NCBI GenBank assembly: GCA_965242695.1
Contig: CBDESU010000001.1
Span: 352,001-416,000 of the forward strand
From: Cenarchaeum sp.
GTDB taxonomy: Archaea > Thermoproteota > Nitrososphaeria > Nitrososphaerales > Nitrosopumilaceae
Direction of reading: 5' to 3'
Length of the DNA stretch: 64,000 nucleotides
The position numbers and the translations under genes are program-made. The notes below the pieces were generated by a model. The model did no database searches and had not been told where the DNA came from. It saw only the letters and a program-made list of their open reading frames with translations. The number at the start of each line of letters is the position of its first letter. The first letter of the stretch is position 1. Positions 54,458-60,074 of this stretch are shown piece after piece.

Positions 54458-54820
54458 CTATGGGCCGCCTGGCGCCCTTGCCGCATCGTAGGCGTCCTCG
54501 AGCGCGGCCCCGACCATGTCGACTGCGTTGTTGCGGCCAAACGGCCTGCCACTCCTCTCGCATGCGCGCCTGTACATGTTGACCGCGGTAAACCGCGGGT
54601 GCATTGCCTCGTACGCGCCGCCGGGCATCTCGATGAACGCGCCGGCGGCGACAAGCGACTCGGCCACTGCCTCGGCACCGCCGCAGGGAATGCCGGCCGC
54701 CTCTGCGATCTGCGCTGCCGTCATCCGGCCGCCGGACGTCACGGCAACAAAGGCCGCGGTCTGCTCGCCGGTGAGCCCGATCTCCTCGATCAGAACGCGG
54801 CGCACTGCATCGCTGTCCAT
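54458..54820 (-). CDS. Small winged-helix (TrmB-like) hypothetical protein
   Basis: GLT...MTAAQIAEAAGI...LVAAGAFIE pattern. ATAAG lies about 25 nt upstream. Confidence 0.7.
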   Translation of the reverse strand: MDSDAVRRVLIEEIGLTGEQTAAFVAVTSGGRMTAAQIAEAAGIPCGGAEAVAESLVAAGAFIEMPGGAYEAMHPRFTAVNMYRRACERSGRPFGRNNAVDMVGAALEDAYDAARAPGGP

Positions 54821-54954
54821 GCGGAGGAGGGCGGGGCGGCCCCTTATCTTTTGTCGCCCCTCCCCCTGCGGCGCGACGGCCGCGACACCTCGCTACATGC
54901 GGCCCGGACTACCGCGCTTCGCAGGCCCTGCGGGCATTCCGATCGCCCGCGGCC

Positions 54955-55204
54955 CTGCGGCGGCAAAGGTCGAGGCCGCAGGATGCCCGTGCCCGCAAGC
55001 GCCGGCGTGGCCTATAGCGACGGACTTTGCTGTGTTCATGTTGCGCTTTCTCTAGGCATACGAGTGACAGCGTTTGTGGGGGGCGCGTGAGGGCCGCGCG
55101 TGCCTCTTGACGATCAAAGTCAACCAGAGCTCGCCCGGACTAACTGAAGCCACCTAGAGCCGCCGCTATAGGCACGCCGCCTGCCGGCTGCCCGTTGCCG
55201 CGCC
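54955..55204 (-). pseudogene. Degenerate third copy of the tRNA-like gene, interrupted at its TAG anticodon
   Basis: Gap-free alignment of gcggcggcaaaggtcgaggccgcagg...caagcgccggcgtggcc-TA to the intact copies, resuming after the insert as ggcacgccgcctgccggctgccc. Confidence 0.7.
55015..55168. mobile_element. 154-bp IS630-type MITE-like insertion
   Basis: Ends TAGCGACGG and TAGCGGCGG (inverted). TA is duplicated at 55013-14 and 55169-70, and the empty site reads CCTAGG. Confidence 0.65.
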
Positions 55205-55284
55205 GCTTTTTTTGGGACTGCCAAATGGATGGCGCGATCGCGCTCCCTTCGCAGCCTTTATCACCCCTCGCAGGGGGGTCGATT

Positions 55285-55377
55285 CGGCGACGGCGGGAGT
55301 CGAACCCGCAAGGCGCTTGGTGTCTCAAGCGCCGGCGTGGTCTGAGCACGCTGGGCTACCGATTGCCCATCGTCGCC
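55285..55377 (-). tRNA. Non-canonical tRNA-like gene, anticodon CAG (Leu codon CUG), long variable arm, G73
   Basis: GGCGACG AT GGGC-AATCGGTA-GCCC A GCGTG-CTCAGAC-CACGC C GGCGCTTG-AGACAC-CAAGCGCC TT GCGGG-TTCGACT-CCCGC CGTCGCC G. Confidence 0.85.
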
Positions 55378-55461
55378 ATTTTTATCCGAGGCTCGCATCC
55401 GCCGCGCTACGCGATCGCACCCCCTTCGCATACTTTATAACAGCCCGATTCGGGCTCGATT

Positions 55462-55554
55462 CGGCGACGGCGGGAGTCGAACCCGCAAGGCGCTTGTGGT
55501 GGCAAGCGCCGGCGTGGTCTAAGCACGCTGGGCTACCGATTGCCCATCGTCGCC
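55462..55554 (-). tRNA. Non-canonical tRNA-like gene, anticodon TAG (Leu codon CUA), long variable arm, G73
   Basis: Identical to the CAG copy except at anticodon position 34 and in the variable loop (CCACCA). Confidence 0.85.
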
Positions 55555-55574
55555 ATTTTTACTAAAAATCAATG

Positions 55575-55590
55575 CTTAATATACCTTTTA
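55575..55590 (-). promoter_or_regulatory. Candidate BRE/TATA promoter for the tRNA-like array
   Basis: The minus strand reads TAAAAGG-TATATTAAG, ending 20 nt upstream of the first tRNA base. Confidence 0.6.
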
Positions 55591-56090
55591 CCATAGCACT
55601 ATACGGTATAACTAGCATGCACGCTTTCCTGCGGGTGGCAGGCCGTCCCGCTCCATGCGCGTAGGACGCCGCGCGCGGACCGAACCTGCATAAGACGGGA
55701 GGCGACAGGGGGCGTTTTGCAGAACAGGACCTGGGCCGGCCCCTCCGGCGGCCGGGTCGCACCGGGCGCGTCGGCTTTTGGACGAAAAGCGTGCCTGCGG
55801 GCACTGCCCGGCGCGGCCGGGGGCCGCAGGGCGCCCGCCGCCTGGCGCATTTTCAGCCGCGGGGGCGCATTGGGCACCGCCGCGGCGCAACTGCCCCGGC
55901 CGCGTGGCGCGCCAGGCGCATTGTGCGCTGGCATGCCCGTCCCCGCTTCGGCGCGGCCGAGACGTGGCCGGCCGGCGCCGATGCCGCCCGAGCGTACCGG
56001 GTATCGTACCTGCGACTACGGGCGGCCGGCATGCCGCCGCCTTGGCGCCGCATGCCCTACGATTTTAAGGGCCGCCGGCGGGGGCCGCGC

Positions 56091-58100
56091 GTGCGGATAC
56101 TGCTGCTCCACTGCGACCATGCCGAGTACAGGCCGGTCAAGAAGGAGATCAACCTCGCCGAGGATGTAGAGCCGAAGGCTGACTCGATCGACGACGGGGC
56201 AGTCGCATTCGTGACCGTAGAGGCCGGCGACGACGGCGGAACGGCCGCGGCCGAGGCCGCCGCAGAGGTTGAAAAGTCGCTCGGCCGCATAGGCTGCCGC
56301 CGGCTGCTCCTGTACCCCTACGCCCACCTCGGCACGAACCTTGCGGCCCCTGCCGCCGCCCTTGCCGTCCTGCGGGACCTGGAGGAGCGCGTGCGCGCGG
56401 CCCTGTCGGCGCCGGAGAAAGGGGCCGCCGGCGGCCCGCCGGACGTGCGCCGCGCGCCGTTCGGGTGGACAAAGTCGTACAGCCTCAGCGTAAAGGCGCA
56501 CCCGCTCGCCGAGCACTCGATCTCGGTCGGAGGCGGCGGCGGGGACGGCGGCAGGGGCGCGGACGGACGATCTTCAGCCGCCGCCGGCGGCCGCCCGGGC
56601 GGGGATGCGGGGGAAAAGGCCGCCTCCGTTGCAGATGCCGCCGACAGCGTAGCGCTCCGCTCCGAGGCGCGCCTCGAGTCCGCCTGGCGCATAATGACGC
56701 CCGACGGGAGGATGCACGACGCCGAAACGTTCGACTTTTCGGGCCACGCAAACCTAGAGGTGCTCGCCAAGTACGAGGCGGCCAAGAGGCGCGCGTCCGA
56801 CGAGCCGCCGCCCCACGTGGGGCTCATGAAGCGCCTGGCAATTGCCGACTACGAGCCGGCGTCGGACCCGGGCAACATGCGCTTCTACCCGAACGGCCGC
56901 CTGATAAAGTCGCTCATCGAGCGGTACGTGACGAAGAGCGTGCGCCAGTACGGGGGCTACGAGGTCGAGACGCCCGTAATGTACGACGCGCGGCACCCGG
57001 GCATGGCTAGCTACTTTGACCGGTTCCCTGCGCGGCAGTACAACATCGGCTCGGACGACGAAGACGGCGGAGGCGGCGGCCGGCGCCTGTTCCTGAGGTT
57101 TGCCGCCTGCTTTGGGCAGTTTATGATGGCCCACGACTTTCAGATGTCGTACCGCAACCTGCCCTACCGCCTGTACGAACTGACGCGGTACAGCTTTAGG
57201 CGCGAGCAGTCGGGCGAGCTCGTCGGCCTGCGCCGCCTGCGGGCGTTCACCATGCCCGACTGCCACGCGTTCTGCCGCGACATGCCGCAGGCCATACGCG
57301 AGATGTCCAAGCGCTTCGACCTCTCGCGCGAGGTCGTGTCAGGCCTGGGCATACCCGGCGGGGCTTACGAGATGGCCGTGCGCATGACCGAGGAGTTCTA
57401 CGCCGAGCACGGCGAGGCGGTGCGCGCAATGGTCGCCAGGCACGGCCGGCCCGTCCTCGTCGAGATGTGGCGCGAGAGGTTCTTTTACTTTGTGCTAAAG
57501 TGGGAGTTCAACTACATCGACGCGGCCGGCAAGGCGTCGGCCCTGTCGACCGACCAGATCGATGTCGAGAACGGCGAGCGGTACGGCATCGAGTTCGTCG
57601 ACGAGGGCAACGAGCGCCTGCACCCGATCATCCTGCACAACTCGCCGAGCGGCGCCGTCGAGCGCGTCATGTACGCGCTGCTAGAGGAGGCAGCGGCCGC
57701 GGCCCGGCGCGGGTCAAAGCCCGAGCTGCCGCTCTGGCTCTCGCCGACGCAGGTGCGCGTCATACCCGTAAGCTCCGAGTTCGAGCAGAACGCGGTGGCG
57801 CTTGCCGGGCGCATCGGCCACCGGAAGGTGCGAGTCGACGTCGACGACCGGACCGAGACGCTCGGCAAGCGCATACGCGACGCCGAGCGCGAGTGGATAC
57901 GGTTCATACTAGTCGTCGGCAAGCGCGAGGCCGCCATGGACGGCGGCATGGTCAGCGTCAGGGACAGGCGGACGGGGCGCACGGAGGACATGCAGCTAGA
58001 CGACCTGATCGGCGCGATCGAGGGCGAGGCCGACGGCAAGCCGTTCGCCGGCCTCAACGTGCCGTTCTACCTGTCGAGGCGCCCGCAGATAATGGTGTAG
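56091..58100 (+). CDS. thrS: Threonyl-tRNA synthetase, archaeal type with N-terminal editing domain
   Basis: RILLLHCD, YPYAHL, RAPFGWTK, HPLAEHS, LRFAACFGQF, FRREQSGE, RLRAFTMPDCH, ILHNSPSGAVER. TTTTAAG upstream. Confidence 0.96.
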   Translation: MRILLLHCDHAEYRPVKKEINLAEDVEPKADSIDDGAVAFVTVEAGDDGGTAAAEAAAEVEKSLGRIGCRRLLLYPYAHLGTNLAAPAAALAVLRDLEERVRAALSAPEKGAAGGPPDVRRAPFGWTKSYSLSVKAHPLAEHSISVGGGGGDGGRGADGRSSAAAGGRPGGDAGEKAASVADAADSVALRSEARLESAWRIMTPDGRMHDAETFDFSGHANLEVLAKYEAAKRRASDEPPPHVGLMKRLAIADYEPASDPGNMRFYPNGRLIKSLIERYVTKSVRQYGGYEVETPVMYDARHPGMASYFDRFPARQYNIGSDDEDGGGGGRRLFLRFAACFGQFMMAHDFQMSYRNLPYRLYELTRYSFRREQSGELVGLRRLRAFTMPDCHAFCRDMPQAIREMSKRFDLSREVVSGLGIPGGAYEMAVRMTEEFYAEHGEAVRAMVARHGRPVLVEMWRERFFYFVLKWEFNYIDAAGKASALSTDQIDVENGERYGIEFVDEGNERLHPIILHNSPSGAVERVMYALLEEAAAAARRGSKPELPLWLSPTQVRVIPVSSEFEQNAVALAGRIGHRKVRVDVDDRTETLGKRIRDAEREWIRFILVVGKREAAMDGGMVSVRDRRTGRTEDMQLDDLIGAIEGEADGKPFAGLNVPFYLSRRPQIMV

Positions 58101-58920: not shown

Positions 58921-59805
58921 TCATGCCGGCCCCTCCCCCTCCTTATTGTCTCTTTCCCAGAGCCTGAAGAACTCGTCGGGCGGCAGCCACCCGATCGACG
59001 AGTGGACCCTGTTGGCGTTGTAGTCCTTGAAGGCGTAGGCCAGGTACTTCTCGGCCTCCTGGAAGCTCTCAAAGTCGTGCGGGCGGACGTAGTCGCGCTT
59101 GAGCGTGTTGTGGAACGACTCGATGTGGCCGTTCTGCTGGGGGGTGCTGACCCAGATGTACTCGACGACGAGGCCGAGGACCTTCATCGCCGCCCTGAAC
59201 TCGCCGCTCCTGTACTGCGAGCCGTTGTCGCAGCGCACGCGGATCCCCTTGACCCGCTCGGGCCGCAGCTCCGCCACGACCTCGGTCACCGACTGGACGG
59301 CCGACGACGCCTGGGCAGACGTCGAGAACACGTATCCAAGCCAGCGGCGCGTGAACACGTCGAACACGTTGAAGCAGTAGCACCACCCGTCGACGCCGCA
59401 GTCTATATACGTAATGTCCGTCTCGAGCAGCTGGTACGGCGCCGTGGGGAAGAACTGCGGTTTCCGCGCCTTTGCAGCCCGAATCGCCTGTTTTTTCGTC
59501 ATTTTTGGCCCTTTTATCTCCAAGATGTCGCATATTCGCACCACCTTCTTGCGGTTGACCCGGCGCCGCATCTCGTACGATGCGGTGTGCGCGATCATCC
59601 TCGTCCCGTAGGTGGGCCTCTCCGAGGATATGCGGGTCACGGCCTTTGCGACGGCCATGTCGATGTCCCTCTTGACGGGCCTCTTCTTGTAGTAGTACGC
59701 CTGGCGCGAGACGCCGCAGTACTTTAGCGCCCGGGTCAGGCTCACCTTGCCCTCCGCTATCCTCTTGACCGCGCTCACCCTCTCCTCAACTCCCAGCTTT
59801 TTTTT
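58921..59805 (-). CDS. IS3 OrfB DDE transposase (expressed by -1 frameshift)
   Basis: TYGTRMI, ETDITYI, CDNGSQYRS, PQQNGHIESFHNTLK, YNANRVHSSIG. Confidence 0.92.
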   Translation of the reverse strand, partial: KKKLGVEERVSAVKRIAEGKVSLTRALKYCGVSRQAYYYKKRPVKRDIDMAVAKAVTRISSERPTYGTRMIAHTASYEMRRRVNRKKVVRICDILEIKGPKMTKKQAIRAAKARKPQFFPTAPYQLLETDITYIDCGVDGWCYCFNVFDVFTRRWLGYVFSTSAQASSAVQSVTEVVAELRPERVKGIRVRCDNGSQYRSGEFRAAMKVLGLVVEYIWVSTPQQNGHIESFHNTLKRDYVRPHDFESFQEAEKYLAYAFKDYNANRVHSSIGWLPPDEFFRLWERDNKEGEGPA

Positions 59806-60074
59806 AACTCGGCATTGACCAAGGTCAGCTCGCCGACGACGATCTTGAGCGACTCGTTCTCCTTGGCCAGCGCCTTTGCAGGATCGCTCCTGCCGTTGCC
59901 TCCTATGCCGGCGAGCTCCCTCTTGCCCGCGTCCATGAACCTCTTGCGCCAGTTGTCGAACGTGGTTGGCGAGAGGCCGTACTTGCGGCATATCCCGGCC
60001 ACGCCGATGTTCGTCGAGAGGTACTCGACCACTATGTCCACCCGCTCCTTGGCGGTCCACCGCTTGTGCGTCAT
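59775..60074 (-). CDS. IS3 OrfA (HTH plus leucine zipper)
   Basis: KRWTAKER...ICRKYGLSPTTFDNWRK...ENESLKIVVGELTL, ending in an A8G slippery tract. Confidence 0.9.
   Translation of the reverse strand: MTHKRWTAKERVDIVVEYLSTNIGVAGICRKYGLSPTTFDNWRKRFMDAGKRELAGIGGNGRSDPAKALAKENESLKIVVGELTLVNAELKKSWELRRG

Follow-up and report, generated by a model that had tools for sequence, protein, structure and literature searches.

A tandem pair of class-II tRNA genes combining serine-like marks with leucine anticodons in a sponge-associated ammonia-oxidising archaeon: candidate members of a fast-turnover archaeal family

Two intact class-II tRNA genes, carrying leucine anticodons on a serine-like body, lie in tandem in a 64,000-nt stretch of the genome of Cenarchaeum sp. 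(assembly GCA_965242695.1, contig CBDESU010000001.1, positions 352,001 to 416,000), below referred to as the window. The host is a sponge-associated ammonia-oxidising archaeon with a genome (G000) of 3.89 Mb in two contigs and a G+C content of 68%; two other genomes recur in the comparison, that of a sister species (G004) and that of a representative of another genus (G104). Judged from sequence, the window genes are best read as functional members of a mobile or fast-turnover family of class-II tRNAs of serine identity, whose anticodons match codons for Leu, Ile and Phe, all with U as the middle base.

Exactly two tRNA genes were predicted by ARAGORN in the window, at 55284–55378 (CAG) and 55461–55555 (UAG), both on the minus strand; the strand was absent from the sequence-only reading that had singled out the pair. 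As delimited by ARAGORN, Rfam and folding, and for the downstream copy also by alignment, the upstream copy occupies 55462–55554 (minus strand, 93 nt, anticodon UAG, G73, A8, A37 and an 8-bp variable stem), and the downstream copy, 55285–55377 (minus strand, 93 nt, anticodon CAG). The Rfam tRNA model (RF00005, gathering score 29) assigns 46.3 bits to the CAG copy and 47.8 bits to the UAG copy, with all 71 model positions covered by both alignments. The cloverleaf folding energies of the two 93-mers are –52.6 and –52.2 kcal/mol, while shuffled sequences yield –34.9 kcal/mol on average (standard deviation 3.5), none of 200 shuffles folding as well (z = –4.93 for the UAG copy and –5.03 for the CAG copy). 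The two 93-nt cloverleaves with 7/4/5/8/5-bp stems and a 177-bp period, described initially from the letters of the sequence, are thus confirmed.

The acceptor and T stems are in the 7/5 arrangement, with A8-U9 following the acceptor stem. The D arm has a 4-bp stem and an 8-nt loop with G18 and G19; the anticodon arm, a 5-bp stem and a 7-nt loop C32-U33-NAG-A37-C38; the variable arm, one unpaired base on the 5' side, an 8-bp stem, a 6-nt loop and two unpaired bases on the 3' side; and the T arm, a 5-bp stem and the loop UUCGACU, where U54-U55-C56 and A58 are present. The discriminator base is G73, and CCA is not encoded. All elbow and loop nucleotides of an RF00005 tRNA are in place, except that U8 is replaced by A8. 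The copies are 95% identical, and the alignment agrees with the initial description in placing all differences between the 93-mers at position 34 (C/U) and at four variable-loop positions. The repeat unit of the array comprises 152 nt (88% identity), with the spacing of 177 bp.

Alternative registers were considered. ARAGORN draws an 8-bp acceptor stem, where U-1 pairs with G73 and the next base serves as the discriminator. This was rejected, because the next base is not conserved (A, A, G or A in G000, C in G004), seven bacterial homologues encode CCA directly after G73, and the Rfam alignment puts G at the discriminator position. The 8/4 and 9/3 readings would require an impossible eighth pair, A8-C65 (U8-U65 or U8-C65 in relatives), and a 6-bp D stem, an A-A mismatch. 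The window tRNAs are not tRNA-Sec, which has the 9/4 (archaeal) or 8/5 arrangement, a D stem of 6–7 bp and the UCA anticodon, and the best-scoring Rfam family within the clan is tRNA rather than tRNA-Sec; the only other Rfam matches in the 54800–56100 region are sub-threshold Tymo_tRNA-like ones overlapping the tRNAs (18–19 bits versus the required 40). Allo-tRNAs as defined by Mukai (2017) have a 12-bp acceptor branch (8/4 or 9/3) and a tRNA-Sec-like D arm with a long stem and a tetraloop, whereas the window tRNAs have 7 bp plus 5 bp and a 4-bp D stem with an 8-nt loop. The remaining allo-tRNA trait, a long variable arm with G73 or U73 and a non-serine anticodon, is shared by the window tRNAs (8-bp stem, G73, CAG/UAG). 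Structurally, they lie outside the allo-tRNA class as defined, being 7/5 throughout.

Serine versus leucine identity was judged by the discriminator, the variable-arm topology and the scores of a family model introduced below. Elsewhere in G000 there are canonical tRNA-Leu with anticodons CAG, UAG, GAG and CAA (85–99 nt, all A73), canonical tRNA-Ser with CGA, UGA and GCU (all G73), as well as canonical tRNA-Ile(GAU) and tRNA-Phe(GAA). Hence the odd pair are not the sole CAG and UAG tRNAs of the genome, which would have undermined the sequence-only reading. Among canonical tRNA-Ser of G000 and its relatives, the variable stem of 4–5 bp is flanked by one unpaired base 5' and two unpaired bases 3' in 10 of 11 folded molecules, and G73 is found in 11 of 11 compared. 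In canonical tRNA-Leu the variable stem has 3–4 bp with three unpaired bases 3' in all five molecules folded, and all those retrieved from relatives have A73. The odd tRNAs have neither the A73 nor the short stem with three unpaired 3' bases; they display the serine-type 1+2 pattern and G73, on a variable stem of 8–9 bp, about twice the canonical length. The proposed chimera of a serine-like body and leucine anticodons hence withstands comparison with both sets of tRNAs. Among the atypical features pointed out earlier, A8, A37 (canonical CUN readers have G37), the 8-bp variable stem and G73 are all present, but A8 is only a quirk of the genus, as U8 is found in one copy of G004 (L007), in the other genus and in bacteria.

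A single SerRS gene is present in the genome, at about 79.8–81.0 kb of C1; the enzyme is of the common type and carries the N-terminal Seryl_tRNA_N arm domain (60.9 bits), which grips the variable arm. ThrRS, AlaRS and LeuRS are likewise encoded once each, LeuRS at about 1,295.6–1,299.5 kb of C2, and no extra or dedicated synthetase paralogue was found in G000. SerRS is anticodon-blind, and a tRNA-Leu can become a serine acceptor through the A73-to-G73 change alone; work on Haloferax reportedly identified A73 as the main LeuRS determinant in archaea. In the adjacent ThrRS gene, 26 leucines are encoded by CTG, 15 of them invariant in five relatives, and six by CTA, four of them invariant. As both codons occupy invariant leucine positions, the code is not reassigned, as had been concluded earlier from other genes of the window.

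When introns are allowed, ARAGORN makes 108 tRNA calls in G000, many of them with kilobase-long introns and clearly spurious, and a few GC-rich false positives remain when introns are disallowed.

The window pair is not isolated. Four copies of the same body are present in G000, the CAG and UAG copies of the window and, elsewhere, GAU and CAG copies; among 60 relatives, BLAST finds it only in G004, in seven copies (GAG, GAU, UAG, AAG, AAG, UAG, GAG). Pairing is intact in 98.4% of the pair cells of these 11 copies, compared to 35–55% in slid controls, and two pairs show both-sided changes. A covariance model built from the 11 copies and searched over 150 relatives yields further strong matches only in G104, seven copies with scores of 42–71 bits and anticodons GAU, CAG and GAA. 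In the G104 version the acceptor, anticodon and variable (9-bp) stems differ, while the fold and G73 are the same, implying many compensatory changes. Covarying homologues, the existence of which was a natural check on the sequence-only reading, are thus found in relatives. A class-wide sample of 150 genomes contains no new strong match (E up to 1e-6) beyond G000 and G069.

Weaker matches of the covariance model, typed with ARAGORN, include more class-II G73 tRNAs with non-serine anticodons on other bodies: GAU in G069 (L013), GAU and CAA in G084 (L014 and L103), GAA, GAU and GAA in the complete genome G032 (L021, L105 and L136), GAG in G021 (L029), CCU in G118 (L025), and UAU in G151 (L089 and L092), a genome that also holds L047. 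As the searches were tuned to one body, all family counts are lower bounds. Throughout the archaeal chimeric copies G73 is retained in 29 of 30, despite unrelated acceptor stems, and A35 also in 29 of 30. U33 and R37 are kept across the family copies, most family anticodons are those of leucine, and position 34 takes all four bases among paralogues, A34 included. We conclude that the stems, G73 and the format of the anticodon loop are under purifying selection. On the other hand, selection for reading both CUG and CUA, suggested earlier for the window pair, is not established: since base 34 varies and isoleucine and phenylalanine anticodons occur, the pair represents one sample of an anticodon-shifting family and not a tuned CUG/CUA set.

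Relatives of this body also exist beyond archaea. An IUPAC pattern derived from the D arm and the T loop was run over public genome, viral and metagenome collections. It matches at four places among 185,579 species genomes, two in metagenome-assembled genomes of Nitrosopumilaceae and two in those of Acidobacteriota, and on two viral and 21 metagenome contigs. The acidobacterial and most metagenome matches are class-II tRNAs of 85–89 nt with G73 and the UAU anticodon (UAC in one case), and true serine anticodons (GGA, CGA, UGA, GCU) occur on the same body in some of the metagenome contigs and in viral contigs that carry tRNA arrays. In the bacterial matches the arrangement is 7/5, and the D arm consists of a 4-bp stem and a loop of 8 nt. 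The archaeal family model assigns 55–64 bits to the bacterial relatives, 27–38 bits to the host tRNA-Ser and 25–33 bits to two of the host tRNA-Leu, the other two (GAG and CAA) giving no match at E up to 0.01. Over the 37 core positions not used in the pattern, identity to the window tRNA is 49–68% for the relatives and 27–46% for the host serine and leucine tRNAs.

In a FastTree phylogeny of 65 core columns the G000, G004 and G104 bodies group together with the bacterial and phage tRNAs, with the Shimodaira–Hasegawa-like support of 0.91 and no canonical archaeal serine or leucine tRNAs inside the group, the alignment being short and the bacterial sequences having been retrieved by similarity in 28 of these 65 columns. 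Five chimeras (L025, L029, L103, L089 and L092) fall among canonical archaeal tRNA-Ser, and for this reason chimeras may have arisen more than once. The archaeal body is apparently akin to bacterial and phage G73 class-II tRNAs, and this sequence kinship, along with the shared marks, supports the earlier view that bacterial allo-tRNAs are the closest described precedent.

The odd tRNA genes have characteristic flanks. Upstream of the window array there is a promoter-like block (55555–55616, minus strand) that contains a near-palindrome TATACCGTATA at 55600–55610, an A-rich TATA-like box at approximately 55575–55589, and AAAAAT directly before +1. A block of about 60 nt with the same three components, the first in the form of a TATACCGTATA-like element, is common to most single copies in G000 and G004, unlike the leaders of canonical tRNA genes of G000, which are GC-rich and have a simple TATA-like box; by its composition the block is a putative archaeal-type promoter. 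A palindromic operator TATAC..GTATA was considered as a shared upstream signal, but only 3 of 28 chimeric tRNAs and none of 16 canonical ones have it upstream, and, not being general, it was dropped.

On the 3' side, the UAG copy is followed by a trailer at 55433–55461 (minus strand), with a hairpin at 55443–55455 and then a TTATAAAG box at 55433–55440, and the CAG copy, by a trailer at 55256–55284 (minus strand), with a hairpin at 55264–55278 and then an ATAAAG box at 55256–55261. About 40 nt downstream are common to every G000 and G004 copy, namely, a hairpin of covarying sequence followed by a (T)TATAAA box. Copies of the G104 type have conserved flanks of their own, in which a TATAAAA box again lies some 20 nt past the gene, and the 3' hairpin and the TATA-like box about 20 nt past the tRNA end are at the same position in L003–L011 and L040–L048. 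Possible roles of the 3' element are to promote a second transcript, to terminate antisense transcription or to direct processing. Within G000 the flanking motifs occur only at odd tRNAs, with one near-match inside the 23S rRNA. Together, the upstream block, tRNA, 3' hairpin and TATA-like box form a compact unit of about 195 bp, and flanks beyond it are unrelated.

Several features suggest that these genes yield missense tRNAs that accept serine from the one housekeeping SerRS: G73 persists despite the turnover of acceptor stems, the anticodon loop still has the format used in decoding, the variable-arm topology is of the serine type, and relatives with the same body carry serine anticodons. 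We prefer this account tentatively, regarding the case for it as close to balanced but not yet tipping in its favour. Under it, each unit would be transcribed from its own archaeal-type promoter, the transcript would be trimmed by RNase P and RNase Z with post-transcriptional addition of CCA, and the sole SerRS would recognise the long variable arm and G73, ignoring the anticodon. The seryl-tRNA would then compete with canonical tRNA-Leu(CAG/UAG) on the ribosome, leading to a low-level or condition-dependent substitution of serine for leucine at CUG and CUA, probably weak or conditional, while paralogues would act likewise at AUY, CUY and UUY codons, isoleucine and phenylalanine ones among them. 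Transcription, processing, charging and ribosomal use are all steps that we infer from the genes themselves, and the conditional leucine-to-serine mistranslation put forward in the sequence-only reading is likewise still a proposal.

A number of observations weigh against serine insertion. As CUG is a common leucine codon (the ThrRS counts above being an example), efficient insertion of serine would be costly, yet in G000 the odd CAG genes outnumber the canonical tRNA-Leu(CAG) gene two to one. The presence of A37 and A8, where G37 and U8 are usual, may impair decoding or folding, and position 37 is not matched to the anticodon across copies. The odd tRNA genes behave like repeats: their distribution is patchy and non-syntenic, the largest genomes, rich in repeats, have the most copies, and damage is evident in some, for example, L005 with a deletion in the T stem and L011 with an A-C mismatch and U73. 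No RNA runs are present among the listed sequencing runs that contain the window stretch. Finally, the bacterial UAU tRNAs, the relatives of most similar appearance, were reported to be inactive as suppressors in Escherichia coli and were suspected of being RNAs linked to transposons or toxin-antitoxin systems (PMC5389517).

A more far-reaching version of serine insertion, which we consider doubtful, is a regulated mistranslation device. It would comprise serine tRNAs mobile across domains and exchanged with Acidobacteriota and phages, with anticodons hopping among CUN, AUY and UUY, charged by the housekeeping SerRS, switched on from a distinctive promoter of their own, and producing a statistical proteome with serine at leucine, isoleucine or phenylalanine positions in certain conditions, for example, in the sponge host.

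The strongest competitor of the serine-acceptor account, although on balance somewhat unlikely, is that these are tRNA-shaped RNAs acting outside translation, either as the RNA component or a passenger of a selfish or mobile cassette, or as regulatory or decoy RNAs, for example, against tRNA-cutting toxins, with the fold kept for processing and stability. The compactness of the unit between unrelated flanks fits this explanation, and so does the structure of the locus. The tRNA-bearing stretch (54830–56040, about 1.2 kb), delimited by BLASTN and by comparison of junctions with G004, extends from a TrmB-like gene to the ThrRS promoter. As the same two flanking genes are about 90 bp apart in G004, without the tRNA stretch, it represents an insertion in G000 or a deletion in G004, and family loci in general are not syntenic between these genomes. 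Downstream of the pair lies a decayed third copy (3' part at 54957–55012, remainder at approximately 55172–55215, minus strand; 67–72% identical over 58 nt), so that the array once contained at least three units. It is interrupted by a repeat resembling a miniature inverted-repeat transposable element (MITE), 55013–55171, of 159 bp with imperfect terminal inverted repeats. The tandem arrangement, the decay of one unit and the MITE-like insertion within that unit also favour this explanation.

The bacterial relatives point in the same direction. Among 27 bacterial loci compared, several of which are near-identical, IS1595-family transposases adjoin the UAU genes at eight loci, and genes for a HigA-like antidote and DUF3467, at ten. 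At L050, L053, L058, L062 and other metagenome loci (L053–L073) the UAU relatives lie between an IS1595-family transposase and a HigA-like antidote with DUF3467, an arrangement that may represent a transposon carrying a tRNA-like gene. The inactivity of UAU tRNAs in E. coli (PMC5389517, as above) and the freedom of position 34 also fit a function outside translation. To our knowledge, A34 is not normally used by archaea.

However, no transposase, integrase or toxin-antitoxin gene is common to the archaeal loci, according to a Pfam search of 20 + 9 neighbouring open reading frames (ORFs), nor is any neighbour gene shared by them in an all-against-all comparison of flanking ORFs, and neither terminal repeats nor target duplications are seen at the tRNA array. 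Moreover, although the structure does not depend on G73, almost all copies have retained it through changes of the acceptor stem, and the anticodon loop keeps its decoding format, with the equally constant A35. These features argue against a function outside translation.

Two further explanations seem improbable. According to the first, the odd tRNAs are extra leucine acceptors: LeuRS would tolerate G73, the CAG and UAG copies would be harmless isoacceptors, and the GAU and GAA copies would place leucine at isoleucine and phenylalanine codons, similarly to nematode nev-tRNAs. The prevalence of leucine anticodons agrees with it, and since replacement of isoleucine or phenylalanine by leucine is mild, it would explain the tolerance of many copies. 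Nematode UAU tRNAs with a variable arm are charged with leucine, according to PMC3333845 and PMC4033280, and one G000 copy is located about 750 nt upstream of the alaS-leuS operon. Still, canonical tRNA-Leu have A73 and a short variable stem (3 bp, three unpaired bases 3'), and the odd tRNAs have neither; A73 is said to be the main LeuRS determinant in archaea, the same body occurs with serine anticodons in phages and bacteria, and the leuS adjacency is not kept in G004. We give as little credence to the second explanation, recently acquired or duplicated genes, silent or decaying, with no role and intact only through youth: the 95% identity of the window copies, the existence of decayed and damaged copies and the patchy distribution would suit it, but many compensatory changes separate the genera without altering the fold, species with ThrRS identities of no more than 70–86% have G73, A35 and the flanking blocks in common, and decay is fast once constraint is lost, as the third copy of the array visibly shows.

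The odd tRNAs share features with several known systems. Of these, the CTG-clade case is eukaryotic and restricted to a single lineage, with a fixed or stochastic reassignment and proteome-wide adaptation of CUG use, while the tRNA-ProX of Streptomyces comes with a dedicated synthetase paralogue. Similarly to tRNA-Ser(CAG) of Candida and other CTG-clade yeasts, and to the dual CUG decoding of Ascoidea (PMC6041473), a class-II CAG tRNA with serine identity marks exists in G000 beside leucine decoding of CUG; unlike in the CTG clade, CUG occupies invariant leucine positions and the family adds isoleucine and phenylalanine anticodons. As with tRNA-ProX/ProRSx, described as a system of deliberate mistranslation (PMC10404621), natural missense tRNAs would exist beside a full canonical set, but without the synthetase paralogue. 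The nev-tRNAs are nematode class-II tRNAs with class-I anticodons, including isoleucine (UAU), and are multi-copy, weakly expressed and of uncertain role according to Hamashima et al. 2012 (PMC3333845) and the review PMC4033280; they are eukaryotic and of leucine identity, whereas the archaeal family has serine marks.

Bacterial allo-tRNAs resemble the family most closely. Mukai et al. 2017 (PMC5389517; serine insertion as summarised in the review PMC7609411) report that G73 allo-tRNAs with a long variable arm insert serine at leucine codons in E. coli. Both sets combine a long variable arm and G73 with non-serine anticodons that vary within one body, and are multi-copy with some copies damaged (PMC5389517). 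The most abundant group, allo-tRNA(UAU), is acidobacterial and found near transposon-related and toxin-antitoxin genes, a setting matched by the IS1595 and HigA-like neighbours of our bacterial relatives, as likened by description (same source). Allo-tRNAs differ in being 8/4 or 9/3 with a long D stem and a tetraloop, and were reported from bacteria only (PMC5389517). The archaeal copies have predicted archaeal-type promoters, no transposase or toxin-antitoxin neighbours, and anticodons of the NAN type. The odd tRNAs may work like allo-tRNAs, the CTG-clade tRNA-Ser(CAG) or nev-tRNAs, by analogy, and are best filed, on the marks listed above, as a new archaeal 7/5 form of serine-identity class-II tRNA with a foreign anticodon. 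In agreement with the sequence-only reading, no archaeal description was found in the literature on anomalous and allo-tRNAs and on class-II tRNAs of Nitrososphaerota, subscription journals and supplements being outside the scope; a 2014 review table has no archaeal tRNA of this kind, and a term search of a 2022 review of unconventional archaeal codes yields no mention of such tRNAs.

A tRNA that combines the identity of one amino acid with the anticodon of another is raw material for changes of the genetic code and for deliberate mistranslation. Examples are known from yeasts, nematodes, Streptomyces and Acidobacteria, and here we observe a multi-copy family under visible structural selection in several genera of globally important ammonia-oxidising archaea. 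If charged and used, these tRNAs would represent encoded sense-codon ambiguity, the first such case in archaea, as well as an instance of tRNA gene flow between domains, and their 7/5 class-II scaffold would be of interest for code engineering; should the device version hold, allo-like missense tRNAs would be a pan-prokaryotic accessory trait, not a bacterial oddity. The odd tRNAs are annotated by anticodon as tRNA-Leu. If they act outside translation, they would represent a new kind of archaeal tRNA-derived repeat, and their annotation as tRNA-Leu or tRNA-Ile should stop.

The remaining observations concern the genomic neighbourhood. The MITE-like repeat has seven BLAST matches in G000, including the window copy, four of them at ≥98% identity, and contigs from two of four sequencing runs (one labelled sponge metagenome, one unlabelled) join position 55013 to 55171 without it. 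The stretch occurs in runs labelled sponge metagenome, one of which yields contigs identical to the window. The array adjoins the TrmB-like gene (54458–54820, minus strand; Pfam score of 23.3 bits, below the cut-off) and the ThrRS gene, and trpDCBA genes are located upstream of the array region. An IS3-family transposase gene (rve and HTH_21 domains; 58921–60060, minus strand) is about 3.4 kb from the tRNA pair.

Outside the window, the second G000 CAG copy (L140, G000:C2:1294500-1304500) lies on the same strand as the overlapping AlaRS and LeuRS genes, upstream of them. Synthetase genes (thrS or alaS-leuS) thus adjoin two of the three G000 loci; as this adjacency is not kept in G004, we treat it as unexplained or due to chance. 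About 1.3 kb from the GAU copy of G000 there is a helicase-like ORF (L141:5487-7991, G000:C2) with ResIII/DEAD, Helicase_C and HNH-repeat domains, which may be a defence or mobile gene. The longest ORF of ThrRS (55791–58100) reaches too far in the 5' direction: the part similar to G004, in which a conserved TATA-like box is present at approximately 56064, starts near 56043, and this places the true start of the gene downstream of about 56090.

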